NCBI GenBank assembly: GCA_039589875.1
Contig: JBDHGL010000013.1
Coordinates: 1,032-65,031 of the forward strand
From: Gemmatimonadota bacterium
Lineage (GTDB): Bacteria; Gemmatimonadota; Gemmatimonadetes; Palauibacterales; Palauibacteraceae
Length of the DNA: 64,000 nt
Direction: 5' to 3'
Below the pieces are notes generated by a model. It did no database searches and was not told the DNA's origin. It saw only the letters and a list, made by a program, of their open reading frames with translations. Made by a program: the position numbers and the translations under genes. Positions 33,846-51,991 of the stretch are shown here, in pieces; position 1 is the first letter of the stretch; every line of letters begins with the position of its first letter.

Positions 33846-33897
33846 GGTATCGTATCCCATTCTCGAGTCTCGTCTACGGTAACTCATCGGACGCTGC

Positions 33898-36800: not shown

Positions 36801-36954
36801 CCGATCCTGCGACCGAGACTTGCGGGAAGGAGATCGCCTCGCCCGTCACATCGTCCGTAACCTGCCCGGTGATGGTTCTCACCTGTTGTTGGGCACTTCC
36901 GGTCGCTGCGAAGACGAGGAGGAATAGGGTGGTGAGCAAACTGAGTTTCCTCAT
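33898..36954 (-). CDS. SusC/RagA family TonB-dependent outer-membrane transporter
   Basis: Start ATG 36952..36954 (MRKLSLLTTLFLLVFAATGSAQQ). Carboxypeptidase-regulatory-like N-domain. Plug (VTGRATETRRRNLPNSIGTVD…YVIDGV) and a long beta-barrel ending in the C-terminal Phe typical of outer-membrane proteins. Confidence 0.9.
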   Translation of the reverse strand: MRKLSLLTTLFLLVFAATGSAQQQVRTITGQVTDDVTGEAISFPQVSVAGSAAPDRAGAATTVGTVGDEDGRYTLDVPAGVPFTLNVQRIGYRTSSTNVEPGTVVVDVALTVDYLRVEELVVTGRATETRRRNLPNSIGTVDGTEIQQVPNQTIDRAIAGRVSGAVISANGGAPGGGLQLEIRGPSSITAASAPLYVIDGVIASNVSIPSDQNVLSAAAGGSNPSLEQDNQVNRIADLNPEDIETIEVLKGASAAAIYGAKAANGVVVITTRRGGTGTSDLRLGFIGGAYSLSNTFGARSFGDQAEAVAAWGPQAAEFCPSSPCPFFDNEEALAHRRDFSYQANLSVTGGDPQSFAYFGSLLWRDDQGIIDNTGFARQSARANLTPTFGNFDIAFNANVLHTRARRGLTNNDNNNVSYYMVFPFSPSFFDLSQNPDGSYPEAIFQGNLSNPLQTAALLENDENVWRYIFSTNIDWRLVQNEKHTFQIVAPLGIDYFQQDNRIYSPPEIFWEPTDGLPGTVVQGNSANRNINVNASGVWDWQIDTGMRLTSAVGVGYETVNTKIDRLIGQSLTAGKNKADAATQVQIRESENQIQDFGFYIQEELLAVNDKLLIGGSLRWDQSSANGNTTKLFMYPKGYASYRFPDLGDAINEVKVRVAYGQSGNRPQCTVLDGCQKFTSLELDKNIEGFAGFQILGQVGDPNLQPERTAEFEGGADLTGWGGRFTLELTGYYQNITDLIIDQTTAPSTGFTSQVFNGGKMKNYGFETTLGLTPFVGSSFTWVSRTTYFFNRTQITELSVPPFEADAGFGLFLGGFYVEEGSSLTQMVATDPACNGLGDPFPRCRTDAGLARFGNSNPDFVMAFTNDFTIMNNVNIFSLLEWRQGQTIVNLTELLYDFGANSPDDGVGEPLRPIDECYPDCNGTERLTEWSNGNALPYTQPSGFMKVRELALTWDLPFRSDTFKLIRLRIAGRNLWTVTNYRGLDPEVSNFGNQAVGRSIDVAPFPPSRSFWAGFDMTF

Positions 36955-37335
36955 GGGGCCCCTCCCAAACCGCGAAGTGAATTTCATGGATTCCCATCCA
37001 CCTCCGAAAGCGGCAGCCGTTCGCGGTCTCCCGGCGCTCCGCTCCCCCAAAAAAGCCACAAAATCCTGCATGCGTAGGGATACGTTTGTCAACCAACGCG
37101 TACGCATGGAAGCCAGGGCTCCCGGCGCAAAGGGCTGACAAAACTCCCCACGTCATTTTACGCCCGAAGAACGGATGCCCGGCGTGAATCGTGACGATCG
37201 CCCGGGCCGCCCTCGGTCTCCGCCCGGCACCTGCCCCCTCGGTGCTGGGTAGTCTCAGCGTATGAAGCCGTGCGGAGCCACAGAAGAGATTCCGCGCAAG
37301 GCTATCCACAGCAACTTTTTAAGCTACTTTATACA

Positions 37336-38523
37336 ATGACGACATCGGTGACCACGTCACGAGAAAGAGCGGCACTCTGGCTACCAGCCATCGGCCTGAT
37401 CCTCTCGGGATGTTCGTCGGACTCCGGAACCGGCCCTCCAGCTCCGCCCCCAGGTGGGTTCGACCTGGCGGTCGAGACGATCGCATCGGGCCTGACCCGT
37501 CCACTCTACCTGACGTCGCCGGCGGACGACGATCGGCTGTTCGTCGTCGAACAGGCCGGCCGGATCCGGATCGTGCGCGAAGGGACCGCGGATCCACAGC
37601 CGTTCCTCGATATCCGGTCTCTCGTGACGAGCACCGTCGAGCGCGGACTTTTAAGCATAGCGTTCCATCCCGGGTACACGAGCAACGGCCTGTTCTACGT
37701 CAGTTACACGGACAACGGCGGTGACACGCGGATCGAGAGATACTCGGCGAGCACCGATCCGGACGTCGCGGATCCGGCGTCCGCCAAGTTGATCCTGGAG
37801 CTGGAGCAGCCGCGCGCGAACCACAACGGCGGACATATACTCTTCGGCCCCGATGGCATGCTCTACGTCGCGCTCGGCGACGGGGGAGGCGCCGGCGATC
37901 CGCTGGAGAGCGGGCAGGACGCGAGCACCCTGCTGGGCTCGCTTCTCCGACTGGATGTCGACGGCGGCGATCCGTTCGCCATCCCGCCGGACAACCCCTT
38001 CGTCGGCGGGCCGGGCCGCGACGAGATCTGGGCCTTCGGGCTCAGAAACCCGTGGCGTATCGCATTCGACCCCCCGACCGGCCTCTTCTATATCGCGGAC
38101 GTCGGTCAGACAGCCTTCGAAGAGGTCAACGTGGTCGACGATGACGAAGCCGGCCTCAACTTCGGCTGGAACATCATGGAGGGGGCACACTGCTTCCCGG
38201 ACGGCCCGCAGGGCGCGAGCTGTGATGAAGCCGGCCTCGTGCTTCCCGTGCTGGAGTACGGACACGACGAAGGCTGCGCGGTGACCGGTGGCCTGGTCTA
38301 CCGGGGAAGCGACCTACCAGAGATCTCGGGACACTACTTCTATTCGGACTTCTGCGCCGGCTTCCTGCGGAGCTTTACGTTCGACGGGGGCTCGGCTACG
38401 GATCTCACGGAATGGGATGTCGGAGACCTCGCCGATGTTCTCTCCTTCGGGCAGGATTCACGAGGCGAGCTCTACATCCTCTCGGCTAGCGGACAGGTCC
38501 TGAAGATCGTACGCGGCTCCTAG
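37336..38523 (+). CDS. PQQ-dependent soluble sugar dehydrogenase (YliI/GSDH family) lipoprotein
   Basis: Lipobox LSGC. GSDH beta-propeller motifs (NHNGGHILFGPDGMLYVALGDGG, FGLRNPWRIAFDP, FGWNIMEG). Confidence 0.85.
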   Translation: MTTSVTTSRERAALWLPAIGLILSGCSSDSGTGPPAPPPGGFDLAVETIASGLTRPLYLTSPADDDRLFVVEQAGRIRIVREGTADPQPFLDIRSLVTSTVERGLLSIAFHPGYTSNGLFYVSYTDNGGDTRIERYSASTDPDVADPASAKLILELEQPRANHNGGHILFGPDGMLYVALGDGGGAGDPLESGQDASTLLGSLLRLDVDGGDPFAIPPDNPFVGGPGRDEIWAFGLRNPWRIAFDPPTGLFYIADVGQTAFEEVNVVDDDEAGLNFGWNIMEGAHCFPDGPQGASCDEAGLVLPVLEYGHDEGCAVTGGLVYRGSDLPEISGHYFYSDFCAGFLRSFTFDGGSATDLTEWDVGDLADVLSFGQDSRGELYILSASGQVLKIVRGS

Positions 38524-38585
38524 GTTCGCCTTTAACGAAGCGGCGCGGCCTCTCGTCCTTAGATACAGAACGGACGAAAAGAGGG

Positions 38586-40415
38586 ATGATGCCCAGCCCC
38601 ATAACCGATAGACCGCACGCCGCCAAGCCGGCTGCCAACAGAACGCCTCACGGAGCCGCCCTGCTGAGCGGCCTAGCGCCCTTGATCCTCATGACCGTGT
38701 CCGGAGTCCCGGCAGCCCAGGCACAGACGGCCGCCGTTCCGGACGCCGATACGGCGCGCGCGGTGCACCTGCTCTCTCGGGCCACGTACGGAGTCAGGCC
38801 GGAAGATCTGGCCGGGCTGCTCGACAGCGGCATCGACGCCTGGCTCGACCGACAGCTCACCCCGAGCCGAATCGACAACTCCGCCCTGGAAGCCCGGCTG
38901 GAAACGTATCCAGCGGCCGAGATGACCATCGCCGAGCTGTACGAGGCCTACCCACCTCCCCAGGTCGTGCGGGAGCGGCTCGGGAATCCCGATTCGGTCT
39001 CGCAGGAGGAGATGCGGCGCATGCGCCGGGAGCTACGCATTCAAAGCCCCAATCGGATCCTCTTCGACCTCGGTGGAGCCAAGCTGCAACGGGCCGTCTA
39101 CGCGAAGCGCCAGCTCGAGGAGGTGATGACGGACTTCTGGTTCAACCACTTCAACGTCTTCTTCGCGAAGGGCCCCGACCGCTGGCTCGTCGGCGACTAC
39201 GAGCGCGAGGCGATCCGGCCGTACGTCTTCGGTGAGTTCGAGGACATGCTCGTGGCCACCGCCTCGCATCCGGCGATGCTGGTCTACCTGGATAATTGGC
39301 AGAGCCAGGTTCCGGACTCGCTGAACCCTCGTGCGGGGCAGCAGGCGCGAAACCGCGAGCGTTTCCGGAATATGTCGCCGCGCCAGCGTCAGGTCGTCCT
39401 TCGCATGCGGGGAGTTTCAGACGAACAGATCGCCCGGATCGAAGGGGCGGTGAAGCGGCAAGCCGGACGCGAGCCGGGACTGAACGAGAACTACGCACGC
39501 GAGCTCCTGGAGCTGCATACGCTGGGCGTGGACGGTGGGTACTCGCAGGAGGACGTCGTAGCGGTCGCCCGGGCGTTTACCGGCTGGACGATCCAGCTGC
39601 CTGGACGTGGAGGAGGTGGCCGTCGCTCGGGGACGAAGATGCCTGACGGGAGCTCCTCCGCCGGACAGTTCGTGTTTCGCGAGGAATGGCACGACCCGGG
39701 CGAGAAGGTCGTGCTCGACCGCACGCTACCGTCCGGCCGCGGCATGGAGGACGGGCTCGACGTGCTTCGCATGCTCGCCGTCCACCCATCGACGGCGGAG
39801 CACATCGCCCGGAAGCTGAGCGAGGCGTTCGTGTCGGACGAGCCGTCGCCTCGGATGGTCGAAGAGCTGACCGCCGTCTTTCTCGAGACGCGGGGAGATC
39901 TCCGGGAGGTCACCAAGGCGCTGTTCACGTCGCCTTACTTCTACGACCCGGCCAACTTCGGCACCAAGCTGAAGTCGCCGTTCGAGCTCGTGGCCAGCGC
40001 GCTCAGGGTGACGGGCGCCGAGTTCGGCGCGTCGCGAGGGCTCGGCGAGCAGCTCAGGGCGCTCGACCAGATTCCCTATATGTCCTCGCCGCCGACCGGC
40101 TACCCGGCGGTTTCCGAGGAATGGGCCAGCGGTGGGGCGCTGCTTCAGCGGATGAATCTCGGCCTCGCGCTCGCTACCGGGAACATCCGGAACGTCCAGA
40201 TCCCGCGGGACCTTTCGCGGCAGCCGTTGGACCAGATGCTGTCGGACATCCTGCCGGGGATGGACACCTCCGGCTTGAGCGCGACCATCGCCGCCGAAAT
40301 GCAGAGCGGTTTCGCCGGACTGGATGGCACGCAGGCGGAGCTGCGTCGACAATCCGGGCCGAGCGATCTGGCGCTCGGCCTCGCGCTCGGGTCGCCCGAG
40401 TTCCAGCGGCACTGA
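38586..40415 (+). CDS. DUF1800 domain protein
   Basis: Signal peptide, then DUF1800 signature (FWFNHFNVF…). Confidence 0.8.
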   Translation: MMPSPITDRPHAAKPAANRTPHGAALLSGLAPLILMTVSGVPAAQAQTAAVPDADTARAVHLLSRATYGVRPEDLAGLLDSGIDAWLDRQLTPSRIDNSALEARLETYPAAEMTIAELYEAYPPPQVVRERLGNPDSVSQEEMRRMRRELRIQSPNRILFDLGGAKLQRAVYAKRQLEEVMTDFWFNHFNVFFAKGPDRWLVGDYEREAIRPYVFGEFEDMLVATASHPAMLVYLDNWQSQVPDSLNPRAGQQARNRERFRNMSPRQRQVVLRMRGVSDEQIARIEGAVKRQAGREPGLNENYARELLELHTLGVDGGYSQEDVVAVARAFTGWTIQLPGRGGGGRRSGTKMPDGSSSAGQFVFREEWHDPGEKVVLDRTLPSGRGMEDGLDVLRMLAVHPSTAEHIARKLSEAFVSDEPSPRMVEELTAVFLETRGDLREVTKALFTSPYFYDPANFGTKLKSPFELVASALRVTGAEFGASRGLGEQLRALDQIPYMSSPPTGYPAVSEEWASGGALLQRMNLGLALATGNIRNVQIPRDLSRQPLDQMLSDILPGMDTSGLSATIAAEMQSGFAGLDGTQAELRRQSGPSDLALGLALGSPEFQRH

Positions 40416-40449
40416 CTCCGGTCCCCGGTTGGAGTAGCTGGAGAGAATC

Positions 40450-41799
40450 ATGACACCGATCAATCGACGGATATTTATAAAGCAGGGCGCGGTCGGCCTG
40501 GTCGCCATCGGGCTACCGCCCCAGTTCCTGGCACGGACGCTGCTTGCCGAGACGAGCTCGGCGGGAGATCAGAAGACGGTCGTCTTCATATTTCAGCGAG
40601 GCGCCGTGGACGGGTTGAACATGATCGTCCCGTTCGGAGAGAAGGCCTACTACCGTGCGCGTCGTTCCATCGCGGTCCCCCAGCCTTCCCGCGGGAGCGA
40701 CGCCACGGCAGTGGACCTGGATGGCTTCTTCGGGCTCCACCCTTCCCTGCGGCCCCTGTACGACCTGTATCGTGACGGCGCTCTGGCGATCGTGCACGGC
40801 TCTGGATCTCCGCACCCGACGCGATCGCACTTCGACGCGCAGGACTTCATGGAGACCGCCACCCCGGGGATCAAGTCCACCGGGGATGGTTGGATGAACA
40901 GGCTGCTGGCGGAGAACGGTTGCGCCTGCACCGGACGGACGCTCGCGGATGGGCCCGCCCATAGCGTGGATCATGCGAGCGGCCAGCTCGGGATGGCCGA
41001 GTCCTCGCCGCTTCGCGGCGTCGCCATGGGAGCCGAGATGCCGCGGGCGCTTCGCGGTTCCCATCCGACGGTGGCGATCGCCGACCTGGCGCGCTTCGGC
41101 ATCGCCGGCGGCCAGAGCCCGGAGTTGGAATCGGTGTTCGAGCGGATGTACCGCAGCGAGGAGAACGATCTGATCGCCGGGGCGGCGGGCGATTCGTTCG
41201 AGGCCATCGAGCTGATCCGCCGGACCGATCCCCTTCAGTACCGGTCCCGGGCGGGCGCGGAGTATCCAAACGGCGAGTTCGGCCGCTCCTTGCGGCAGAT
41301 CGCCCAGCTCATCAAGGCAGGCGTCGGGCTGGAGATCGCCTTCACGGACATCGGCGGCTGGGATACCCACCTGGCGCAGGGTGGCGCTCAGGGACAGCTG
41401 GCCAACCGGCTGAGCGAGCTGGCAAGGGGGATTCGGGCGCTATACGACGACCTGGGCGACAGGATGGAAGATGTCGTCGTCGTCACGATGTCGGAATTCG
41501 GCCGGACGGTGGCCGAGAACGGCTCCGGCGGGACAGACCACGGCCACGGCAACTGCATGCTTGTCCTCGGTGGCTCGACAGCCGGTGGGCGCGTGCTCGG
41601 GAGATGGCCCGGCCTCGAGCCGGAGCAGCTCTATGAGGGGCGTGATCTGGCGATCACGACCGACTTCCGGGACGTCTTCGCCGAGGTGGCGAGCGGCCAT
41701 CTCGGCGCGGAGCATCTCGAGCGGGTCTTCCCAGGCTATCGGGTAGACCGGTCGAGGTTCGCCGGGGTCCTGGGCTCAGAAGCGAATCGAACCCGATAG
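40450..41799 (+). CDS. DUF1501 domain protein (sulfatase/alkaline-phosphatase-like) with Tat signal
   Basis: Twin-arginine motif NRRIFIK. DUF1501 body. Canonical DUF1800/DUF1501 gene pair. Confidence 0.85.
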   Translation: MTPINRRIFIKQGAVGLVAIGLPPQFLARTLLAETSSAGDQKTVVFIFQRGAVDGLNMIVPFGEKAYYRARRSIAVPQPSRGSDATAVDLDGFFGLHPSLRPLYDLYRDGALAIVHGSGSPHPTRSHFDAQDFMETATPGIKSTGDGWMNRLLAENGCACTGRTLADGPAHSVDHASGQLGMAESSPLRGVAMGAEMPRALRGSHPTVAIADLARFGIAGGQSPELESVFERMYRSEENDLIAGAAGDSFEAIELIRRTDPLQYRSRAGAEYPNGEFGRSLRQIAQLIKAGVGLEIAFTDIGGWDTHLAQGGAQGQLANRLSELARGIRALYDDLGDRMEDVVVVTMSEFGRTVAENGSGGTDHGHGNCMLVLGGSTAGGRVLGRWPGLEPEQLYEGRDLAITTDFRDVFAEVASGHLGAEHLERVFPGYRVDRSRFAGVLGSEANRTR

Positions 41800-42558
41800 A
41801 TAAGGTACGGCGCGGCCCGAGATCTCCACCCGCCCGTCTCTGAGCTCACACCACAGCTCTCCGCCCCGCCGGGAGATCTGTCGCGCATGCAGGCTCGTCT
41901 TGCCGAGCCGTTCCGCCCAGTAGGGGGTGAGCGTGCAGTGGGCGGAGCCGGTCACCGGATCCTCGGGAATGCCGAGATCGGGGGCGAAGAAGCGCGAGAC
42001 GAAGTCGCAGCTTTCGCCGGGTGCCGTGACGATCACGCCGCGCGCCTTCAGCCCGCGGAGACCCTCGAAGTCGGGGCGGAGGTCACGTACCTCAGTCTCC
42101 TCCGAATATCGCACCAGGTAGTCCGCGGCTAAAAGGACCTCGCTCGGCGATCCGCCGAGCGCCTTCCGAAGCCCGTCCGGCTCGGGGCACGGCTCGGGTT
42201 GACGGGCCGGAAAGTCCATCCGGAGGAGCCCGTCGTCGGCACTCCGGACGGTCAGGCGCCCGCTCCGCGTTTCGAAGCTCACCTCCCGGCTCTCCACGGA
42301 GAAGTGCTCGAACAGCACGTAGGCGGAGGCGAGCGTGGCGTGGCCGCAGAGATCCACCTCGGCGACCGGCGTGAACCATCGTAGCCCGTACTCCGAGCCT
42401 GACCCAACGAGAAACGCCGTCTCGGAGAGGTTGTTCTCGGTCGCGATCGCCTGCATGACGGCCTCGTCGGGCCATCGTCGCAGCACGCACACGGCAGCCG
42501 GGTTACCGGCGAACAGACGATCTGCGAACGCATCCACCTGAAAAAGAGGTGCTTCCAT
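41776..42558 (-). CDS. PhzF family isomerase-like protein
   Basis: MEAPLFQVDAFADRLFAGNPAAV… is the typical PhzF N-terminus. The 3' end overlaps the DUF1501 gene by 24 nt. Confidence 0.85.
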   Translation of the reverse strand: MEAPLFQVDAFADRLFAGNPAAVCVLRRWPDEAVMQAIATENNLSETAFLVGSGSEYGLRWFTPVAEVDLCGHATLASAYVLFEHFSVESREVSFETRSGRLTVRSADDGLLRMDFPARQPEPCPEPDGLRKALGGSPSEVLLAADYLVRYSEETEVRDLRPDFEGLRGLKARGVIVTAPGESCDFVSRFFAPDLGIPEDPVTGSAHCTLTPYWAERLGKTSLHARQISRRGGELWCELRDGRVEISGRAVPYLSGSIRF

Positions 42559-42683
42559 TTCGGCTCTCCTTGCTCCCACCCTGCTCCCCGTCCCGACTCA
42601 CGCCAAACGCCTACGGCGCGTCTTGCTCCGCCGTCCGGGCGCTCTCTATCGTTCGCCTCGTGACCTCGCCCCCGCTAGACCCG

Positions 42684-43133
42684 ATGATCCCCTCGGTACG
42701 CCGCACGTTCTGGTCGCTCGCCGTGACGGTCGTCCCGGACGCCGTCACCCTGGACGCAGACGGCTGGCAGGATGTCGAGGAGCGAATCGAGGCCGCACTT
42801 TCCTCCCGTCCCGCCAGGCTTCGGCGCCAGCTCCGCCTGCTGCTGACGTTTCTGGAATGGAGGCCGATTCTCCGGCATGGACGACGGTTCAGCCACCTCG
42901 ACGCCGAGCGCCGGACCGAGTTCCTGGATCGGGTACAACACTCGTCGGCACTCCTTCTCAGGCGGGGGTTCTGGGGAGCTCGGACCCTCGTATATCTCGG
43001 CTACTACGGACGCCCCGACGTGCGACGATCCATCGGATATCGAGCCGATCCACGCGGCTGGACTGCACCGGGCCACGGCACAGCCGGTGGAGTGACCGAC
43101 TCGGCGACCGGCGGTGGTGAGGTCCAGCGGTGA
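42684..43133 (+). CDS. Putative small subunit of a two-component GMC flavoprotein dehydrogenase (gluconate 2-dehydrogenase subunit 3-like)
   Basis: About 150 aa. The start is uncertain (ATG 42684, RRTFW…). Its position, overlapping the GMC gene start, is typical for this small subunit. Sequence similarity to the family is weak and judged from memory. Confidence 0.45.
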   Translation: MIPSVRRTFWSLAVTVVPDAVTLDADGWQDVEERIEAALSSRPARLRRQLRLLLTFLEWRPILRHGRRFSHLDAERRTEFLDRVQHSSALLLRRGFWGARTLVYLGYYGRPDVRRSIGYRADPRGWTAPGHGTAGGVTDSATGGGEVQR

Positions 43134-44641
43134 TCCAGCGGGAGTACGACGTCGTGATCGTCGGGTCGGGAGCGGGAGGAGGAACGGTCGCGCTCGGTCT
43201 CGCTCCCCTAGTGGAGCAGGGCCGCCGTGTGCTCGTTCTAGAGCAGGGCCCACGCCTCGGAGGCGGGGAGTTCACCGGTGAAGAGGTCGAGATGGCCGAG
43301 GCCCTGTACGCGGATTCGGGCGGCTTTCTGACATCCGATGGGACCATGACGCTCGCCTTCGGTCGAGTGTACGGCGGGTCGACGGCCGTGTACACCGGCA
43401 CATCGCTGATCGCCGGGGCCCGGGTGATCGACGACTGGGACGTGCCGGAGCTGGCTCACGCGGATCTCGTGGAGCGATCTCGGCGGTTCGCCGACCAGAA
43501 CAACGTCCATCTGCTCGAGCCTCATGAGATCAACGAGAACAACACGCTCTTTGTGAAAGGGTGCGAGCGCGCCGGGTTCGAGGCGCACCAGTTTCCGGTC
43601 AACGTGAAGGGATGCCTCGGGTCGAGCCTCTGCAACCTGGGATGCCCGAACGGAGCGAAGCAGGGGACGGACCGGGTGCAGCTTCCGGCAGCGGAAGCGC
43701 GCGGCGTCGAAGTCGTGACGCGAGCCGAAGTCGACCGAGTGGAGGATGGTTCGGTGATCGCTCGCGTTTCCGGGATCTCCTTGGGCGGAAAGGGAGCCGC
43801 CTCCGAGTGGGAGCCGGGCGAGTACCGGGTTCGAGCCTCCATCATCGTCGTGGCCGGCGGCGCGATCGGCTCGCCCGCCCTGCTGCTGCGATCAGGCTTC
43901 GAAAGGCAGCTTCCGCGCCTCGGGGAGGGGTTCACCTGTCATCCGGCGTTCATTCTCGTCGCGGAGCACTCGAAGGAGATCACCAACGATGTCGGCCATC
44001 CGAAGAGCTATTACGTGGACCGTGCGAACGAGGAAGGCTACGTGCTAGAGACGTGCATGTACTTCCCGTTCGTCACGGCGAAGAACCTGCGGGGGTTCGG
44101 CGAGTCGCCGCAGCGCTTTCTGGCCGCGTTTCCTCGTCTTCAGATGATCCTGGTTCTGGCCTGCGACCGCGCGACTCCCGGAAACCGAATCGCGGTCGAC
44201 TCCGACGGGAATCCGATCGTGCACTACCGGTTCACGGACGAGGTGGTGCGCGCGCTCGCGCGAGGGACTCGCGCTTCGACCCGGATTTTCTTCGGGGCCG
44301 GCGCGGAGCGCGTGCACGCCCCTCTCGCCCGGCCGGCGGAGATCGAGGCCGAGGAGGCCGACCGGATCGACCAGAGGATCCGCGCCGCGCACTTCTTGCC
44401 GGGTACGGTGGCCGTCTCGGCTGCTCACCTCATGGGCGGCTGCGCCATGGGTAAATCTGCTGCGGACTCCGTGACGGACGGCTGGGGTCGCGTTCACGGT
44501 CGACCCGGACTGCGAGTCGCGGACTCCAGCCTCTTCCCGGACTCGCTGCAGATCAACCCGTATCTGACCATCATGGCCCTCGCCGACCGAACGGCGGAAG
44601 CGATCCGGCGCGATGCCGGAGAGCTGCTCGGTTCACCATGA
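43130..44641 (+). CDS. GMC family FAD-dependent oxidoreductase
   Basis: N-terminal FAD fold (YDVVIVGSGAGGGTVA). GMC C-terminal region (…AAHLMGGCAMG…RVADSSLFP…NP). Confidence 0.9.
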   Translation: MIQREYDVVIVGSGAGGGTVALGLAPLVEQGRRVLVLEQGPRLGGGEFTGEEVEMAEALYADSGGFLTSDGTMTLAFGRVYGGSTAVYTGTSLIAGARVIDDWDVPELAHADLVERSRRFADQNNVHLLEPHEINENNTLFVKGCERAGFEAHQFPVNVKGCLGSSLCNLGCPNGAKQGTDRVQLPAAEARGVEVVTRAEVDRVEDGSVIARVSGISLGGKGAASEWEPGEYRVRASIIVVAGGAIGSPALLLRSGFERQLPRLGEGFTCHPAFILVAEHSKEITNDVGHPKSYYVDRANEEGYVLETCMYFPFVTAKNLRGFGESPQRFLAAFPRLQMILVLACDRATPGNRIAVDSDGNPIVHYRFTDEVVRALARGTRASTRIFFGAGAERVHAPLARPAEIEAEEADRIDQRIRAAHFLPGTVAVSAAHLMGGCAMGKSAADSVTDGWGRVHGRPGLRVADSSLFPDSLQINPYLTIMALADRTAEAIRRDAGELLGSP

Positions 44642-46377
44642 AGCTTCCTGCCGCGAAGGCGGTCGTCGCGGCCCTGGAGGCCGAGAACATCACCCACACC
44701 TTCGGCATTCCCGGTACGCACAACATAGAGCTCTACGATGCTCTCGCCGGCTCGCGAAGCGTGCATCCCGTACTCGTGACGGACGAACAATCCGCTTCCT
44801 TCATCGCGGACGGATATTGGCGGGCATCGGGCCGTCTGGCGTGCGTCAACGTGGTTCCCGGCGCGGGCCTGACGCACGCACTCTCCGGCATAGCCGAGGC
44901 CTACCTCGACAACGTTCCGATGCTCGTGCTCGCCTGCGGAATCCGTCAGCGAACGGACAAGGCCTATCAGCTGCACGAGGTGGACCAGCTGGCGATCGCG
45001 GCGCCGGTGGTGAAGGACGTGCTCCGGGCCAGCCGCAGGTCCGAGGTCTACGCCACCGTGCGGCACGCATGCGCAACGGCTCGCGCGGGCGTTCCGGGCC
45101 CGGTGGTGGTCGAGATCCCCGCAGACCACTATCTGGCACAAGATGCCGTGGAGCAGGAGCCCGCCTCTGCAATGGCCGGCCAGCCCGAGCCGCTGGATCG
45201 AGACCTGGTTCTGCGCGCCCTGGAAACCCTCGAGGCGGCAAGATGCCCGCTCCTCTACGTGGGCTACGGAGCGGCCGGCGCGGCGGATCGTCTGGTCGAG
45301 CTGGCCGAGCGGCTGGAGTCACCAGTATCCACCACGATCCAGGGCAAAGGAGTTTTCCCCGAGTCGCACCCGCTGTACCTGTGGCCCGGCTTCGGGGAAG
45401 CCGCTCCCTCGTTTGCCCGGCGGGTCGCTGGGAGCTGCGATGCCACGCTCGCAATCGGCTGCCGGTTCAGTGAAGTCGGTACCGGGAGCTACGGCCTCGA
45501 GCCGCCCGGCCCCCTCGTTCACGTAGACATCGATCCCGAGGTTCCCGGCCGGAACTACGAAGCGGCGGTACCGCTCATCGGGGAAGCGGGCGCGGTGATC
45601 GATGCCCTGCTCGCCGAGCTGCGGTCCAGGAAGCCCGATGAAGGTCTGCGCCGCCGGATCGCAGAGGGCCACGCCGCCCTGGCGCCAAGCGCGAAGGGGG
45701 GCACGCGCTCCGGCGTCTCTCCCGCGCGGCTCTTCCGGGAGCTTCAGGCACGATACCCGGAGGAGACCATCTACGTGACCGACAGCGGGAACGGGACCTT
45801 TCTGGCGATGGAGCATCTGCGTCTCGCGGCCCCCGGCCGGTTCCTGGCTCCGGTCGATTACTCCTGCATGGGCTATTCGGTGCCGGCGGGAATCGGGGCA
45901 TCGCTCGCTTGCCCGGACGTTCCCGTGGTGGCGCTGCCGGGGGACGGCGCCTTCCTGATGACCGGCCTGGAGCTTCTCACGGCTGCCCGAGAGGGTGCGG
46001 CAACCGCCGTTTTCGTGCTTCGCGACCGGGAGCTCGCCCAGATCGCACAGTTTCAGGATACGGCGCTCAGCCGGCGAACCAGCAGCGAGCTTCCGGACTA
46101 CGACTTGGGAGCCCTGGCGACGGCTGTCGGAGTGGAGTGCCGGAGCCTTCTTTCGGACGGCGATGTGGAGGAGACGGTCGCATGGTCGGCCGAGGTTATC
46201 GGCGAGGGGCGGCCGGCGCTGGTCGATCTCGCGATCGACTACTCGGAGAAGACCCACTTCACGAAGGGGGTCGTGAAGACCGCGTTCGGACGGCTCTCCT
46301 GGGGCGACCGTCTGCGCTTCGTGGGACGGGCGCTCGGGCGCAAGCTCCCGGGTTCGATGGCGCCTTCCCACCGTTGA
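44638..46377 (+). CDS. Thiamine-diphosphate-dependent enzyme (acetolactate synthase / benzoylformate decarboxylase-like family)
   Basis: TPP N-terminal PYR domain. Central domain. C-terminal PP domain with GDG(A/S)F…N motif (LPGDGAFLMT). Its ATG overlaps the GMC gene's stop. Confidence 0.85.
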   Translation: MKLPAAKAVVAALEAENITHTFGIPGTHNIELYDALAGSRSVHPVLVTDEQSASFIADGYWRASGRLACVNVVPGAGLTHALSGIAEAYLDNVPMLVLACGIRQRTDKAYQLHEVDQLAIAAPVVKDVLRASRRSEVYATVRHACATARAGVPGPVVVEIPADHYLAQDAVEQEPASAMAGQPEPLDRDLVLRALETLEAARCPLLYVGYGAAGAADRLVELAERLESPVSTTIQGKGVFPESHPLYLWPGFGEAAPSFARRVAGSCDATLAIGCRFSEVGTGSYGLEPPGPLVHVDIDPEVPGRNYEAAVPLIGEAGAVIDALLAELRSRKPDEGLRRRIAEGHAALAPSAKGGTRSGVSPARLFRELQARYPEETIYVTDSGNGTFLAMEHLRLAAPGRFLAPVDYSCMGYSVPAGIGASLACPDVPVVALPGDGAFLMTGLELLTAAREGAATAVFVLRDRELAQIAQFQDTALSRRTSSELPDYDLGALATAVGVECRSLLSDGDVEETVAWSAEVIGEGRPALVDLAIDYSEKTHFTKGVVKTAFGRLSWGDRLRFVGRALGRKLPGSMAPSHR

Positions 46378-47279
46378 GCTCCCTTCCGGTCGTGTTCGAT
46401 GAGTCCTACGAGATCGATATCGGCCCGCACGTCTTTCCGACCCTCAAATACCGCCTTGTCCGGGACAGACTGCTTCGAGACGAGGTCATCTCGAGGGACG
46501 ATCTGCGGCGCCCTCGGACCGCGACCGAGGAGCAGTTAGCGCTCGTACACACCCCGGAGTATCTGCAGAAGATCGAATCGGGCAGCTTCACGCTTGCCGA
46601 ACTGATACAGCTGGAGGTGCCGTTCTCGCCGGAGCTCGCAGCTGCTTCCAGGCTGTGCGCGGGCGGATCCATCCTGGCCGGAGAGCTCGCGCTCGAGGTT
46701 GGCATCGCGGCTCATCTCGGAGGCGGCTTTCATCACGCATTCCCCGATCACGGGGAGGGCTTCTGCCTCATCAACGACGTCGCGGTGGCGATTCGAGTGC
46801 TTCAAGAGCAAGGGAAGTTGGATCGAGCGGCGGTCGTCGACCTCGACGTCCACCACGGCAACGGCACGGCGACCATCTTCGCGGGAGACGACCGGACGGC
46901 GACGTTCTCCATGCACGAGAAGTCGAACTATCCGGCGGTCAAGCCGGCGAGCGACCTGGATCTGGATCTGGAAAGCGGCATCGAAGACGCCGAGTATCTC
47001 GAGCTCCTCTCCGAGCATCTGCCCGCCCTGCTCCGCGGTTGCCGTCCGGAGCTCGTCTTCTACCTGGCGGGCGCCGATCCCTACCGCGAGGATCAGCTCG
47101 GCGGACTCGGGCTGACGATCGACGGCCTGGCCGCGCGTGACGCCGCCGTGCTGCGATCGATTGAGGAGATCGACGCCTCGGCCGCGGTGGTGCTGGCCGG
47201 CGGATACGCACGTCGTACCGACGACACGGTGGCCATCCACTGCGCGACGGTAGGGGCCGCACACGCGCTGGCAAGCTGA
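46374..47279 (+). CDS. Histone deacetylase / acetoin utilization (AcuC) family amidohydrolase
   Basis: Candidate starts at TTG 46374 or GTG 46392. HDAC signatures (EGFCLINDVAVA, DLDVHHGNGT, GGYA). Confidence 0.8.
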   Translation: MSSLPVVFDESYEIDIGPHVFPTLKYRLVRDRLLRDEVISRDDLRRPRTATEEQLALVHTPEYLQKIESGSFTLAELIQLEVPFSPELAAASRLCAGGSILAGELALEVGIAAHLGGGFHHAFPDHGEGFCLINDVAVAIRVLQEQGKLDRAAVVDLDVHHGNGTATIFAGDDRTATFSMHEKSNYPAVKPASDLDLDLESGIEDAEYLELLSEHLPALLRGCRPELVFYLAGADPYREDQLGGLGLTIDGLAARDAAVLRSIEEIDASAAVVLAGGYARRTDDTVAIHCATVGAAHALAS

Positions 47280-47356
47280 GCGGCGCTCGCCTATAGTGCG
47301 AGGGCTCCGCCCGCCGTCGATTCGGAGTCCGGCCTTCCTGACAAGGAGATACGTCC

Positions 47357-47914
47357 ATGTGGATCGCGCTCTTGATCCTGATCGTCCTGATCGTGGCCTT
47401 CGTCGCGATCTACAACGGTCTCGTCAAGCTGAAGGTCCGGGTCGACAACTCCTGGGCTGATATCGATGTGCAGCTCAAGCGGCGCTACGACCTGATCCCG
47501 AACCTCGTCGAGACCGTGAAAGGGTACGCAAGCCACGAAAGGGACACTCTGGAAGCCGTGATCGAGGCTCGCAATCGAGCGATGAGCGCCCAGGGACCGG
47601 AGGCACAAGCAGAGGCCGAGAACGTGCTCACGGGTGCGCTCAGACAGCTCTTCGCCCTGTCGGAGGCGTACCCCCAGCTCCGTGCCGTGGAGAGCTTCAC
47701 GGATCTACAGGGCACCCTGAGCGAGATCGAGGACGCCGTCCAAAACGCCCGCCGTTACTACAACGCGGTCGTCCGAGACTACAACACGAAGATCCAGACC
47801 GTGCCGTCCAACCTCGTTGCCGGCATGTTCAGCTTCCCGCCACGCCAATTCTTTGGCCTCGAGGATGAAAGCGAACGCGAGGCTCCAAAGGTCGATTTCG
47901 GAGCCGCCGGCTAG
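47357..47914 (+). CDS. lemA: LemA family protein
   Basis: N-terminal TM helix, then the LemA core (YNGLVKLKVRVDNSWADIDVQLKRRYDLIPNLVETVKGYASHE). Confidence 0.9.
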   Translation: MWIALLILIVLIVAFVAIYNGLVKLKVRVDNSWADIDVQLKRRYDLIPNLVETVKGYASHERDTLEAVIEARNRAMSAQGPEAQAEAENVLTGALRQLFALSEAYPQLRAVESFTDLQGTLSEIEDAVQNARRYYNAVVRDYNTKIQTVPSNLVAGMFSFPPRQFFGLEDESEREAPKVDFGAAG

Positions 47915-49733
47915 GCGCCGCCGGCGTCGGTCGGTCGGGCAAGCTGCCTCCCTAGCCGCGGTCGGCCTCGCGGCCGCGGCCGCGCTGGCTTTCGAAGGCG
48001 GCGCCGGAGTCGCGGTTGGCGCCGCGCTGGCGCCCGAAGCTCGTTTCCCGGTCACCCGCGAGTGGGTAATCGAGAGCTTCGACGTCGAGGTACGGGTGCA
48101 GCGCAGTGGCCGAATCGATGTCACCGAGACGATCCAGCCCCGTTTCACCGGATCCTACCAGGGGATCTTCCGCACCATCCCAATCCGCTATCGAGACGCA
48201 AAGGGGTTCAACTACGCACTGCGGCTCGACGTTCACGAGGTGACGGACGGATCGGGGAACGCCTTGCGGTACGAGGTGAGTCGGGAGGGCCAGTTCAGGA
48301 AGATTACCATCTGGGTGCCCGGCGCCGCCGACGCGACCCGTACGGTGCAGATCCGATACAGCGTGGCAAACGGGCTGCGGTTCCCTGAGGGCGAGTCGGA
48401 GTTCGACACGTGGGACGAACTGTACTGGAACGTCACGGGTGACGAGTGGCCGGTGCCGATCGAGCGGGCGACGGCGGGGATCTTCCTCCCGGCTGAGGTG
48501 ACCGGCCTTCGGGCGCGAGCCTTCACGGGCGCCTACGGATCCACGGAATCGGCGGCTCGCGTCGATGTGCAGGACCGCTTCGTACGCATCGAGACAACGC
48601 GACCGCTCGCCTTCAAAGAGGGGCTCACCGTGGCCGTCGCGTGGGACGCCGGCGTGATCGATCGACCGGGTGCCGTTGCGAAGACGGGCGACTTTCTCAG
48701 AGCCAACTGGCCGCTCTTCGTACCGATCCTCGCCTTTCTACTGATGTGGCAGCTATGGAAGGCGCGCGGAAAGGACCCGGAAACGGGCACGATAGCCGCC
48801 CAATACGAGCCCCCCGACGAACTCTCGCCCGGCGAGATCGGAGTGCTCATCGACCACTCCCCCGACATGCGCGACGTGACAGCAACGATCGTGGATCTCG
48901 CCGTCCGGGGGTACCTGAGCATAGAGGAGAAGGAGACGAAGAAGCTTCTCGGCTTCATCTCGGACACGGACTACACGTTTCGCCTCGAGAAGGCGCGCAG
49001 CGACTGGCCGTGGGATGACCTGCAGGCGCACGAGACCGCGCTGCTCGATGCGTTGTTCGGATCTTCCGGCTCGGCCGTAGACCTCTCGGATCTCCAGAAC
49101 GAGTTCTATCGCGACCTTCCGGCGATCCGAGATGGCATGTTCAGGCGGCTTCTCAAACGACGGTACTACGAGCGCCGGCCTGACCGAGTGAAAGCCGCGT
49201 ACGTCGGCGCTGGCGTCGTCGTCACCGTGCTGATCCTGGTCGGCGGCAACATCCTCGCCGCCACTCTCGGAGAGTCGCCGCTGACCGTGATCTTCGCCGG
49301 AGTGCTGACCGGGGCGGTCATCGCCGGGTTCGGGCTGATCATGCCGGCCCGGACGGTGCGAGGCACTCGAGTCTTTGCACAGGCGCGCGGCTTCGAGGAG
49401 TTCTTGGAGCGGGTCGAAAGCGATCGCTTCAAGCGCATGATCACCGGTCCCGAGATGTTCGAGAAGTATCTCCCGTTCGCCATGGCCCTGGGGGTCGAAA
49501 GCAAGTGGGCAGCGGCGTTCGAGGATATCTACAAGGAACCCCCGAGCTGGTATCACGGCTCGAGCTTCCACTCGTTTCGCACCGGCGTCTTCGTGAACGA
49601 TCTCTCCCGCATGGCGACCCACACGTCGCAGACCATGGCTTCCAGGCCACGCAGCTCGGGCGGGTCGGGATTCAGTGGAGGTGGAGGCTTCTCCGGGGGC
49701 GGCTTTGGCGGTGGCGGGGGCGGCGCGTTCTAG
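47862..49733 (+). CDS. DUF2207 domain membrane protein with C-terminal Gly-rich tail
   Basis: Canonical LemA partner. Extracellular beta domain, TM helices and a GGSGFSGGGGFSGGGFGGGGGG tail. The exact start is uncertain and overlaps the lemA 3' end. Confidence 0.75.
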   Translation, partial: RMKANARLQRSISEPPARRRRRRSVGQAASLAAVGLAAAAALAFEGGAGVAVGAALAPEARFPVTREWVIESFDVEVRVQRSGRIDVTETIQPRFTGSYQGIFRTIPIRYRDAKGFNYALRLDVHEVTDGSGNALRYEVSREGQFRKITIWVPGAADATRTVQIRYSVANGLRFPEGESEFDTWDELYWNVTGDEWPVPIERATAGIFLPAEVTGLRARAFTGAYGSTESAARVDVQDRFVRIETTRPLAFKEGLTVAVAWDAGVIDRPGAVAKTGDFLRANWPLFVPILAFLLMWQLWKARGKDPETGTIAAQYEPPDELSPGEIGVLIDHSPDMRDVTATIVDLAVRGYLSIEEKETKKLLGFISDTDYTFRLEKARSDWPWDDLQAHETALLDALFGSSGSAVDLSDLQNEFYRDLPAIRDGMFRRLLKRRYYERRPDRVKAAYVGAGVVVTVLILVGGNILAATLGESPLTVIFAGVLTGAVIAGFGLIMPARTVRGTRVFAQARGFEEFLERVESDRFKRMITGPEMFEKYLPFAMALGVESKWAAAFEDIYKEPPSWYHGSSFHSFRTGVFVNDLSRMATHTSQTMASRPRSSGGSGFSGGGGFSGGGFGGGGGGAF

Positions 49734-50470: not shown

Positions 50471-51991
50471 ATGAGCGAACTCGCCTCGCTAGCGGCAGTT
50501 TACGAGGCAACCCGCGAGATCGGCCTGAGCGACAACCTGGACCTTCTGCTCGAGAAGGTGCTCGCTCGCGCTCAGGATCTCATCGGATTCGATCACTGCG
50601 CTTTGATGCTGTACGACGCCGAGAGTCGCACCCTCTCCGTAAAGTCGGTTCGAGGCTACGGTGACCGGGCGGCCGATGTTCTGAGACTCTCGCTTCCTGA
50701 AGGTCGCGGGATCTCCAGCTGGGCCGCCGCACACCGACAGGCGGTGCGGGTGAGCGATGTGTCGGACGACCCGCGCTACGTAGTCGGACTCCAGGAGGCT
50801 CACTCCAACATGGCCGTCCCCCTCGTTGTGGGTAACGAGGTGGCGGGCGTTATCAACGTGGAGTCGGACCGGAAGGCCGCTTTCACGGAGGAGCATGAAA
50901 AGCTCCTTACGGTTCTCGGGGCGCAGGCGGCGCTTGCTATCGTCGCCTCCCGGGCCCGTGAGCGACTTCGCTCCAGGATCAACCAGCTTGATGCGCTCTA
51001 TCGCATCAGCCAGCTGGCCAGCGATGGACGGGACATCCACTCAACGCTGGAAGCGATACTGGAGGTCGCTCAGGACGCCATCCCGTGCGGGCAGTGCGCG
51101 ATGCTGTTGGTGGACGACGATGAGCGCGTCCTTCGGGTCCGGGCAGCCAACGGATACGCCGAGGGCGTCGAAGAGCTCACCATCCCGCTTCGGGAAGGCA
51201 TCACCGGGCGCTGCGCGGCATCCGGGCAGACCATCGTCGTCAACGATCTTGACGCCGACGAAGACTACATCCCGGGCGTCGCCGGCGCGCGCAGCGAGAT
51301 CGCTGTCCCTTTAATAGTCGAAGGACGGGTGATCGGAGTGTTGAATGCCGAATCCACGCGTCTCGATGCGTACCGGGAAGAGCACGCGCACACGCTCTCG
51401 GTCGTGGCGCAGCAGGCCGCCGTTGTACTGCGTTCGGCCAGGCTTCAGGAGGAGACGCGACGTCTCGCGGTAACCGATCCACTCACCGGCCTTCACAATC
51501 GTCGGTACTTCGTGGAGCGCCTCGGCGAGCACATGGCCCGGGCCGAAAGATACGGCGAGAAGCTCGGCATGCTCCTGCTGGACAGCGATCACCTCAAGTT
51601 GATCAACGACCGCCACGGTCATCACACCGGTGACGTCGTTCTCCAGAGGATCGCCGCCGCGTTCCGTAAAACCCTGCGCGATTCGGATGAAGTGTCGCGC
51701 ATCGGCGGCGACGAATTCGCCGCCCTTCTGCTTCAGGCGGACGAGTCCCTGGCGCTCGGGATCGCTCGGCGGCTGAAGGAGGAGTTGCACGAGGCCGCTC
51801 TGCCCTCCGAGAGCGGCGAGTTGATCGCGATCAGCTGTTCCGTCGGCATCGCCCTGTACCCGGACGATGCCGTGGATGCCAAGGCCCTCCTCCGGGCTGC
51901 GGACCTCGCCCTTTACAACGCGAAGGGACGTGGACGGAACCAGATCTCGGTAGCGAGACAGCGCCTACAGCTCGCGGTTCACGGCCCCTAG
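50471..51991 (+). CDS. GAF-GAF-GGDEF diguanylate cyclase
   Basis: Two GAF domains, then a GGDEF domain with RIGGDEF A-site and RxxD I-site-like motif. Confidence 0.9.
   Translation: MSELASLAAVYEATREIGLSDNLDLLLEKVLARAQDLIGFDHCALMLYDAESRTLSVKSVRGYGDRAADVLRLSLPEGRGISSWAAAHRQAVRVSDVSDDPRYVVGLQEAHSNMAVPLVVGNEVAGVINVESDRKAAFTEEHEKLLTVLGAQAALAIVASRARERLRSRINQLDALYRISQLASDGRDIHSTLEAILEVAQDAIPCGQCAMLLVDDDERVLRVRAANGYAEGVEELTIPLREGITGRCAASGQTIVVNDLDADEDYIPGVAGARSEIAVPLIVEGRVIGVLNAESTRLDAYREEHAHTLSVVAQQAAVVLRSARLQEETRRLAVTDPLTGLHNRRYFVERLGEHMARAERYGEKLGMLLLDSDHLKLINDRHGHHTGDVVLQRIAAAFRKTLRDSDEVSRIGGDEFAALLLQADESLALGIARRLKEELHEAALPSESGELIAISCSVGIALYPDDAVDAKALLRAADLALYNAKGRGRNQISVARQRLQLAVHGP

Follow-up and report, generated by a model that had tools for sequence, protein, structure and literature searches.

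Four genes on the forward strand of a Gemmatimonadota contig (GCA_039589875.1, contig JBDHGL010000013.1) follow each other so tightly that each overlaps the stop codon of its predecessor, which raises the question of which of them belong together in function. The stretch that we analyzed, hereafter the window, comprises 64,000 nucleotides (contig positions 1,032 to 65,031) with a G+C content of 63-68%, and all coordinates below refer to it. The genes encode a small protein, a flavoprotein dehydrogenase of the GMC family, a thiamine diphosphate (ThDP)-dependent enzyme and a protein resembling histone deacetylases (HDACs). An earlier note on this DNA had taken the four genes as one functional set. 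We find that the conserved unit is the triad of the small, GMC and ThDP genes and that the HDAC gene lies outside it. Our preferred reading, held with slightly more confidence than doubt, is that of a conserved three-gene operon joined by a lineage-specific passenger, in which the triad would act as a cytoplasmic two-step module leading from a dehydrogenase to a ThDP-dependent enzyme.

The small, GMC and ThDP genes form a conserved triad

The small open reading frame (ORF) of 149 amino acids (42684-43133, ATG start) is followed by the gene for the GMC-family flavin adenine dinucleotide (FAD) dehydrogenase catalytic subunit (43130-44641, 503 amino acids, GTG start). Next come the gene for the ThDP-dependent enzyme (44638-46377, 579 amino acids, ATG start), which resembles acetolactate synthase (ALS) and α-hydroxy-β-keto acid (HKA) synthase, and the gene for a putative class IV (clade B) Zn-dependent deacylase (46374-47279, 301 amino acids, TTG start). 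As the earlier note had stated, all four lie on the plus strand with start-to-stop overlaps, i.e., GTGA (43130-43133), ATGA (44638-44641) and TTGA (46374-46377). Neither a terminator-like nor a promoter-like site was seen inside the four-gene cluster, and the packing supports the proposed single operon in the form of one probable transcription unit. The 104 bp upstream of the small ORF (42580-42683), which separate it from a divergent gene, presumably hold the operon promoter as judged from the gene arrangement; both sigma-70-like and Rfam matches were absent from this region. An upstream riboswitch (e.g., for thiamine pyrophosphate) was considered and rejected, with zero Rfam matches at E < 0.2.

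We then searched a collection holding one genome per species for relatives of the GMC protein and confirmed at least 447 stretches that encode one. The best 80 of these loci (67-81% identity) served as the neighborhood set, against which the window proteins were compared by tblastn. The small gene and the GMC gene occurred as a pair in essentially all 80 loci, and the small ORF preceded the GMC gene wherever upstream sequence was available. The order small ORF-GMC-ThDP, with the ThDP gene directly 3' of the GMC gene, was found in 59 of the 76 loci informative on this point, with a modal overlap of 4 bp. Look-ups anchored on three ThDP homologs (63-64% identity) recovered the same order again, in two cases amid molybdenum-cofactor genes. 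Triad proteins from different phyla share 60-70% identity. The record titles of the loci name Gemmatimonadota, Thermoanaerobaculia, Vicinamibacteria, other Acidobacteriota, Planctomycetales, Akkermansiaceae and Rubricoccaceae, labels that may carry binning errors, as all relatives are contigs of metagenome-assembled genomes (MAGs). An identical GMC protein is encoded in two Gemmatimonadota MAG assemblies, GCA_039588775.1 and GCA_039589135.1.

Clustering of the neighboring ORFs in the 80 loci yielded no additional gene family that recurred in more than nine of them. The neighbors that did recur include Moa genes (Pfam) and, as we read their sequences, GreA-like, glutamate dehydrogenase, M20 peptidase, extracytoplasmic function (ECF) sigma factor and thioredoxin genes, presumably all housekeeping. 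A hidden fourth partner such as a cytochrome, a transporter or a regulator was considered and rejected, as the same clustering gave only apparent lineage-specific housekeeping genes. The earlier note had also held that no described pathway has this exact gene set; our literature search likewise found no published pathway combining a GMC enzyme, a gluconate 2-dehydrogenase subunit 3 and a ThDP enzyme.

In two loci (L085, 4477-10806; L086, 4444-10789), one of them labeled Acidithiobacillales, the triad is flanked by moaA and MoCF_biosynth genes at one end and by moaC and NTP_transf_3 (MobA-like) genes at the other. The lengths and the order of the clustered ORFs suggest the same arrangement for several Acidobacteriota loci. 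The position of the triad within a molybdenum-cofactor cluster probably reflects lineage synteny.

The small ORF encodes a putative Tat-less gamma subunit

The small ORF of the window gave zero Pfam matches at default thresholds. Among its homologs, 27 of 30 matched Gluconate_2-dh3 (PF13618) with a best E-value of 9.5e-9, and the window copy scored 0.017 against the same model. Members of the family are ~130-150 residues long. An AlphaFold2 model, for which the alignment was built from database homologs, is all-helical with a mean predicted local distance difference test (pLDDT) score of 82.6, and the protein contains no cysteine. Since its homologs precede the GMC gene and substitutions relative to them fall mostly on the third codon position (e.g., 37/23/73 for positions 1/2/3 of the plus frame), we regard the small ORF as a real gene. 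In the annotation of the sister assembly it was left uncalled and an 88-residue antisense ORF was called instead (window 42675-42941, minus strand), which is an annotation error. Miscalls of this antisense type probably recur in other genomes, because the small-protein family is often labeled 'hypothetical' or left uncalled.

The N-termini of ~80 homologs begin right at a conserved (V)R..FRA.A.T.VPE motif. They contain no hydrophobic region and no conserved RR pair, i.e., no signal for twin-arginine translocation (Tat). On these grounds we classify the small protein as a divergent, Tat-less member of the Gluconate_2-dh3 (gamma or 'hitchhiker') family, encoded beside a catalytic subunit as is typical of such gamma subunits. 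Because the small subunit has no twin-arginine signal, the dehydrogenase of the triad would be cytoplasmic and not periplasmic.

The GMC protein belongs to the FAD/3Fe-4S dehydrogenase type

Pfam assigned GMC_oxred_N (2.2e-31) and GMC_oxred_C (4.7e-24) to the GMC protein. Its best matches in the PDB were the catalytic subunits of FAD-dependent glucose dehydrogenase (FAD-GDH) and fructose dehydrogenase (FDH) at E-values of ~1e-10, with the alpha subunit of Burkholderia cepacia FAD-GDH (BcGDH; 6a2u_B) at the top. In the alignment with 6a2u_B, His433 falls on the histidine of the BcGDH 'NH' dipeptide, which we take to be the catalytic His476. Asn476 presumably corresponds to Asn519 of BcGDH, a match that we made by the NP-x-x-T motif and not from the 6a2u_B alignment. 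His433 and Asn476 are invariant in 120 homologs, as are three cysteines, C162, C168 and C172. These lie in a C162-x5-C168-x3-C172-P173 motif that aligned with Cys212, Cys218 and Cys222 of 6a2u_B, the residues that ligate the 3Fe-4S cluster of BcGDH (PMC6719666). The motif in the window protein is expected to hold such a cluster as well.

The pair thus shares with the B. cepacia FAD-GDH gamma-alpha-beta complex (6A2U) and with Gluconobacter FDH (7W2J) the GMC fold, the His/Asn catalytic pair, the cysteine motif aligned with the cluster ligands and a Gluconate_2-dh3 family partner gene directly upstream. It differs from these complexes in the small subunit, which has no Tat signal, and in the missing membrane-bound multiheme cytochrome c that serves them as electron acceptor. 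No CxxCH motif occurs in any protein encoded between 37.2 and 52 kb of the window, and across the 80 loci and the annotated contexts the ThDP gene is the sole conserved third partner, with no multiheme cytochrome c subunit among them. Moreover, the inter-subunit disulfide of BcGDH is missing, with Leu163 in place of Cys213 and a cysteine-free small protein. The sequence similarity to these complexes is remote, and the pair is coupled to a ThDP enzyme instead.

Other members of the FAD/3Fe-4S dehydrogenase group, besides FAD-GDH and FDH, are gluconate 2-dehydrogenase, sorbitol dehydrogenase and glucoside 3-dehydrogenase. The earlier note had compared the GMC protein and its small partner to enzymes of the last type. 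No glucoside 3-dehydrogenase reference appeared among the PDB or NCBIfam results for the GMC protein. What stands of this comparison is the broader type, a flavoprotein with a Gluconate_2-dh3 partner and the features of FAD/3Fe-4S enzymes; a Tat signal or a cytochrome c subunit has no counterpart here. As judged from these features, the GMC protein and the small protein would form a dehydrogenase complex of the FAD/3Fe-4S type with a gamma subunit. The combination with an ALS-like ThDP enzyme, in the absence of Tat signal and cytochrome c, appears to be new relative to the known FAD/3Fe-4S complexes.

The ThDP enzyme is ALS-like with altered acetohydroxyacid synthase signatures

All three Pfam domains TPP_enzyme_N, TPP_enzyme_M and TPP_enzyme_C were found in the third protein of the triad. 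Its best PDB match was BbmA (8xod, 2.4e-66), whose identity as a 'ThDP-dependent HKA synthase' we take from the PDB title only. An AlphaFold2 model (pLDDT 87.8) retrieved 8x3x as the top Foldseek hit (1.3e-44), and the other top hits include acetohydroxyacid synthase (AHAS). Thus, the enzyme shares a three-domain ALS-like fold with BbmA and CsmA (8X3X, 8XOD, 8X3Z) and with AHAS catalytic subunits (template modeling scores of ~0.81-0.88), at an identity of ~30% to BbmA and ~25% to AHAS. The three domains, the catalytic Glu50 and a GDG-x(24-27)-N/D cofactor motif (G435-D436-G437...R462-D463), the latter two invariant, place it in the ALS-like/pyruvate oxidase-like branch of the ThDP superfamily. 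The carboligase or decarboxylase that the earlier note had proposed is hence borne out as an ALS-like enzyme by NCBIfam, PDB and Foldseek comparisons alike. The profile searches also returned the Pfam families expected for the GMC, ThDP and HDAC proteins.

A closer inspection of the active site shows that Arg276-Phe277, also invariant, correspond to the 'RF' of the AHAS 'RFDDR' acceptor site, i.e., the acceptor-carboxylate position, which is common to the window protein, the HKA synthases and AHAS. The further AHAS signatures are absent. An invariant His113 occupies the position of the AHAS glutamine (Gln207 in Arabidopsis thaliana (At) numbering), where BbmA likewise has a histidine. Furthermore, the invariant R462-D463 stand at Asn564-Asn565, so that the ThDP motif reads 'RD' where AHAS has 'NN', and Phe472 stands at Trp574 (At numbering). 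No gene resembling ilvN or ilvH for a regulatory subunit lies adjacent to the ThDP gene in the window or in the ThDP-anchored contexts; the genomic partner is a flavoprotein dehydrogenase instead.

The enzyme also differs from HKA synthases and AHAS by an additional basic C-terminal tail (46255-46377, residues ~540-579), which is conserved as AIDYS.KT.FT.GVVKTN..RLPW.DRLRF..RAL and predicted to form two helices, the last with a moderate hydrophobic moment of 0.51. A phmmer search with the tail consensus gave zero matches in the PDB. Candidate roles are an active-site lid, partner docking or membrane binding. A membrane-binding tail of the PoxB kind, suggested by a likeness of 'KTN(F/L)LR' to the PoxB C-terminus, found no support in the empty PDB search or the moderate moment; we keep it as a minor rival. 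Among other candidate identities, Xsc was rejected at 204.5 bits against a cutoff of 620 (NF005713) and 195.5 against 676.4 (TIGR03457). An AruI-type identity was rejected at a score below the curated cutoff, and IolD fell outside the best 25 NCBIfam hits listed.

The HDAC-like gene and the PhzF gene are lineage-specific neighbors

The fourth gene encodes a Hist_deacetyl protein (PF00850, 4.7e-59). Its best PDB match was the 305-residue chain of 9gz5/9rjd (2.5e-69, full-length alignment); the clade A entries 9rje and 9gkv ranked below it. From the residue numbering in the alignment we take this chain to be Leptospira interrogans HDAC11/B. With this protein the window protein shares an identical 'GPHVFP' loop 1, the loop-2 glutamate (E84 position), a phenylalanine gatekeeper in GGGFHH and intact Zn and catalytic residues (GGGFHH, DLDVHHGNG, GADPY and GGY). 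It lacks the arginine of clade A at the S94 position. By the criteria of the report that names the entries 9RJD and 9RJE (PMC13325672), namely a loop-2 glutamate, a Phe/Tyr gatekeeper and no Arg-Glu foot-pocket pair, these are clade B signatures. According to this report, lysine peptides with acyl groups from acetyl to octanoyl are substrates of basal bacterial clade B enzymes (PMC13325672). We assign the HDAC protein to class IV (HDAC11-type), clade B, on these motifs, and its most likely activity is that of a short-/medium-chain acyl-lysine deacylase. The deacetylase for an N-acylated sugar suggested by the earlier note does not fit this assignment, since the characterized bacterial relatives act on acyl-lysine peptides and not on N-acyl sugars. 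Unlike the Leptospira enzyme (liHDAC11/B), the window protein is encoded behind a ThDP gene as if in one operon, an arrangement confined to a single Gemmatimonadota lineage. Its TTG start coincides with an ATG start (MSRPHVVFD...) in two close relatives (L003, L005).

Within the 80 GMC-anchored loci, the HDAC gene adjoins the triad in L003, L005, L006 and L008 only. The HDAC, PhzF and DUF1800/DUF1501 genes accompany the triad only in L003-L008, at a GMC identity of at least 78%, and these loci are syntenic throughout the region. LemA-DUF2207 follows the ThDP gene directly in L010 and L075, without an HDAC gene, and in L010 the PhzF gene is also absent though the flanks are conserved. Conversely, a metagenome contig scan anchored on the HDAC gene (80 loci, 47-64% identity) found GMC, ThDP and small genes nearby in 0 of 80. 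The conservation of gene neighborhoods, which the earlier note had proposed to inspect, thus holds between phyla for the triad and only among close relatives for the HDAC and PhzF genes, and the four genes do not travel as one set. Because LemA-DUF2207 directly follows the ThDP gene in L010 and L075, we take the HDAC gene to have been inserted there, ahead of LemA, in a single Gemmatimonadota lineage. It probably shares a transcript with the triad yet would be independent of it in function.

In the sister assembly GCA_039588775.1 (L001, ~6418), 82 bp are missing inside the HDAC gene (window 46435-46516) from an otherwise identical aligned stretch. The frame is shifted and the annotation calls a 220-residue fragment only; either the gene is a pseudogene in this strain or the assembly is wrong at this point.

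The PhzF-family isomerase-like gene (41776-42579, minus strand; Pfam PhzC-PhzF 4.2e-60, TIGR00654 131 bits) lies divergently upstream, as described before, and is a neighbor outside the conserved module.

A two-step model for the triad and its alternatives

How could the three proteins work together? In our preferred reading, the small protein would bind and stabilize the flavoprotein in the cytoplasm, and the flavoprotein would convert a hydroxyl into a carbonyl group. Electrons would pass from FAD to the 3Fe-4S cluster and on to a further acceptor, no cytochrome c subunit being encoded. We favor oxidation of a 2-hydroxy acid (e.g., an aldonate) to a 2-oxo acid by analogy with gluconate 2-dehydrogenase, because the conversion of gluconate to 2-ketogluconate yields a 2-oxo acid, the canonical ThDP donor. 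Alternatively, an alcohol might be oxidized to an aldehyde or ketone. The ThDP enzyme would then take the carbonyl compound as a 2-oxo-acid donor for decarboxylation, with or without carboligation to an α-hydroxy-β-keto acid or acyloin; it might instead use it as the acceptor. We infer complex formation, the presence of the 3Fe-4S cluster, the substrate class and the hand-over of a metabolite between both enzymes.

A similar two-step logic is known from the isethionate pathway, in which the flavin-dependent isethionate dehydrogenase IseJ produces a carbonyl compound for cleavage by the ALS-like ThDP enzyme Xsc, a sulfoacetaldehyde acetyltransferase (PMC6453916). The likeness is an analogy only, as IseJ is membrane-bound and the ThDP enzyme scores below the Xsc model cutoffs. 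Neither a sulfite exporter nor a phosphotransacetylase gene lies beside the triad in the loci with annotated neighbors.

Several observations weigh against our reading. The GMC protein scores far below every NCBIfam cutoff, and the best NCBIfam match of the ThDP enzyme (TIGR00118) reached 305.7 bits against a cutoff of 538.35, with the other ALS models also below theirs. The triad encodes no electron acceptor. An adjacent ThDP gene is missing in 17 of the 76 informative loci, so the small-GMC dehydrogenase pair can stand alone. The neighborhoods contain no conserved substrate-specific transporter, regulator or further pathway enzyme that would point to the substrate. Finally, the HDAC gene of the window overlaps the ThDP stop codon, and a functional link in this lineage is possible.

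A broader claim, that the triad represents a widespread undescribed cytoplasmic pathway module with a new soluble dehydrogenase branch and a new ThDP specificity, possibly as a physical complex, we regard as a tentative possibility rather than an expectation.

Among the alternatives, a biosynthetic module fares best, and we consider it rather unlikely. Here, the ThDP enzyme would be an HKA or acyloin synthase making a small α-hydroxy-β-keto acid or acyloin (for example, for signaling, for use as a cofactor or as a precursor of lipid head groups), and the flavoprotein would supply the carbonyl partner or oxidize it further, e.g., an acyloin to a 1,2-diketone. The nearest solved relatives BbmA and CsmA, both titled 'ThDP-dependent HKA synthase', and the BbmA-like His113 in place of the AHAS glutamine are in line with this, as is a self-contained triad that keeps 60-70% identity between phyla without catabolic neighbors. 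However, the identity to BbmA is only ~30%, and tailoring, export or other biosynthetic genes are not conserved nearby. Sequence cannot tell this module from the two-step model that we prefer.

A single pathway that comprises the four genes and possibly PhzF, and that degrades or tailors an N-acylated or keto sugar, seems improbable. In this scheme, the HDAC protein would strip the N-acyl group, the GMC protein would be a glycoside 3-dehydrogenase and the ThDP enzyme would process the keto sugar. This idea draws on the start-to-stop overlaps that join all four window genes, on the sugar dehydrogenases in the family of the GMC protein and its small subunit, and on the four loci (L003, L005, L006 and L008) in which these genes and PhzF stay together. 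These loci are close relatives, however, and their co-retention is uninformative because the whole 15-kb region is syntenic. L010 and L075 keep the flanks without the HDAC gene, the former without PhzF as well, and the triad is absent from the HDAC-anchored loci. Moreover, the signatures of the HDAC protein are those of class IV clade B enzymes that deacylate acyl-lysine peptides, and no sugar transporter or kinase is among the conserved neighbors.

Highly improbable in our view is a redox coupling in which the ThDP enzyme serves as a PoxB-like 2-oxo-acid oxidoreductase and the FAD/3Fe-4S protein with its small subunit as the electron-transfer partner, or the reverse, so that the partner protein would replace the missing cytochrome c subunit. 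The lack of an encoded cytochrome c or other acceptor would be explained in this way, pyruvate oxidases are among the structural neighbors of the ThDP enzyme, and the invariant basic tail, with its two predicted helices and the moment of 0.51 in the last, could be seen in the same light. Yet the tail found no PDB chain, so that PoxB-type pyruvate oxidases were not recovered with it. AHAS and HKA synthases outscore the pyruvate oxidases, and in the 17 loci mentioned above no ThDP gene adjoins the dehydrogenase pair.

The least probable alternative, adjacency without shared function of an unrelated dehydrogenase pair and an ordinary AHAS isozyme, as the top NCBIfam model (TIGR00118, biosynthetic acetolactate synthase) and the JGI label 'acetolactate synthase large subunit' of homologs might suggest, can largely be dismissed given the score far under the 538-bit cutoff, the lack of a regulatory small-subunit gene and of ilvC/ilvD nearby, the altered signatures (Gln to His113, NN to R462-D463 and Trp574 to Phe472) that are invariant in the family, and the 4-bp translational coupling to the GMC gene kept between phyla.

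Surroundings of the cluster

The region upstream of the cluster (32382-41799) encodes a TonB-dependent receptor (Plug/CarboxypepD_reg, 1069 amino acids), a SusD-like protein, a soluble glucose/sorbosone dehydrogenase (GSDH) and a DUF1800-DUF1501 pair, and is possibly a glycan-uptake region. The DUF1501 gene (plus strand, ending at 41799) and the PhzF gene (minus strand, ending at 41776) are convergent, with their 3' ends overlapping by 24 bp. The DUF1800/DUF1501 pair is kept in the nearest relatives and L010 only. Directly downstream of the cluster lie a LemA gene and a gene for a DUF2207 membrane protein (47357-49733). Both a sigma-70-like match (47268-47297) and a strong ribosome-binding site, AAGGAG, precede LemA. 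Further downstream, after an AhpC/Redoxin gene, follows a GAF-GAF-GGDEF diguanylate cyclase with two GAF domains (50471-51991), which is unrelated to the cluster.

Significance

For annotation, the locus teaches two things: automatic gene calling misses the small subunit, and it would be wrong to count the HDAC gene into the pathway. If the dehydrogenase is as we propose, a naturally soluble, cytoplasmic FAD/3Fe-4S enzyme with its own small subunit would be of interest for biosensors, a field that now engineers the periplasmic enzymes of Burkholderia and Gluconobacter. A new ALS/HKA-synthase-like carboligase would likewise be of interest for biocatalysis. Should the broader, tentative claim hold true, the triad would add a new branch of soluble enzymes to the 'direct-electron-transfer' dehydrogenases and a new specificity to the ThDP enzymes. 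If our preferred reading holds, the triad would mark an as yet unassigned two-step reaction in many bacteria of soils and sediments, Gemmatimonadota and Acidobacteriota among them, whose metabolism is little understood.

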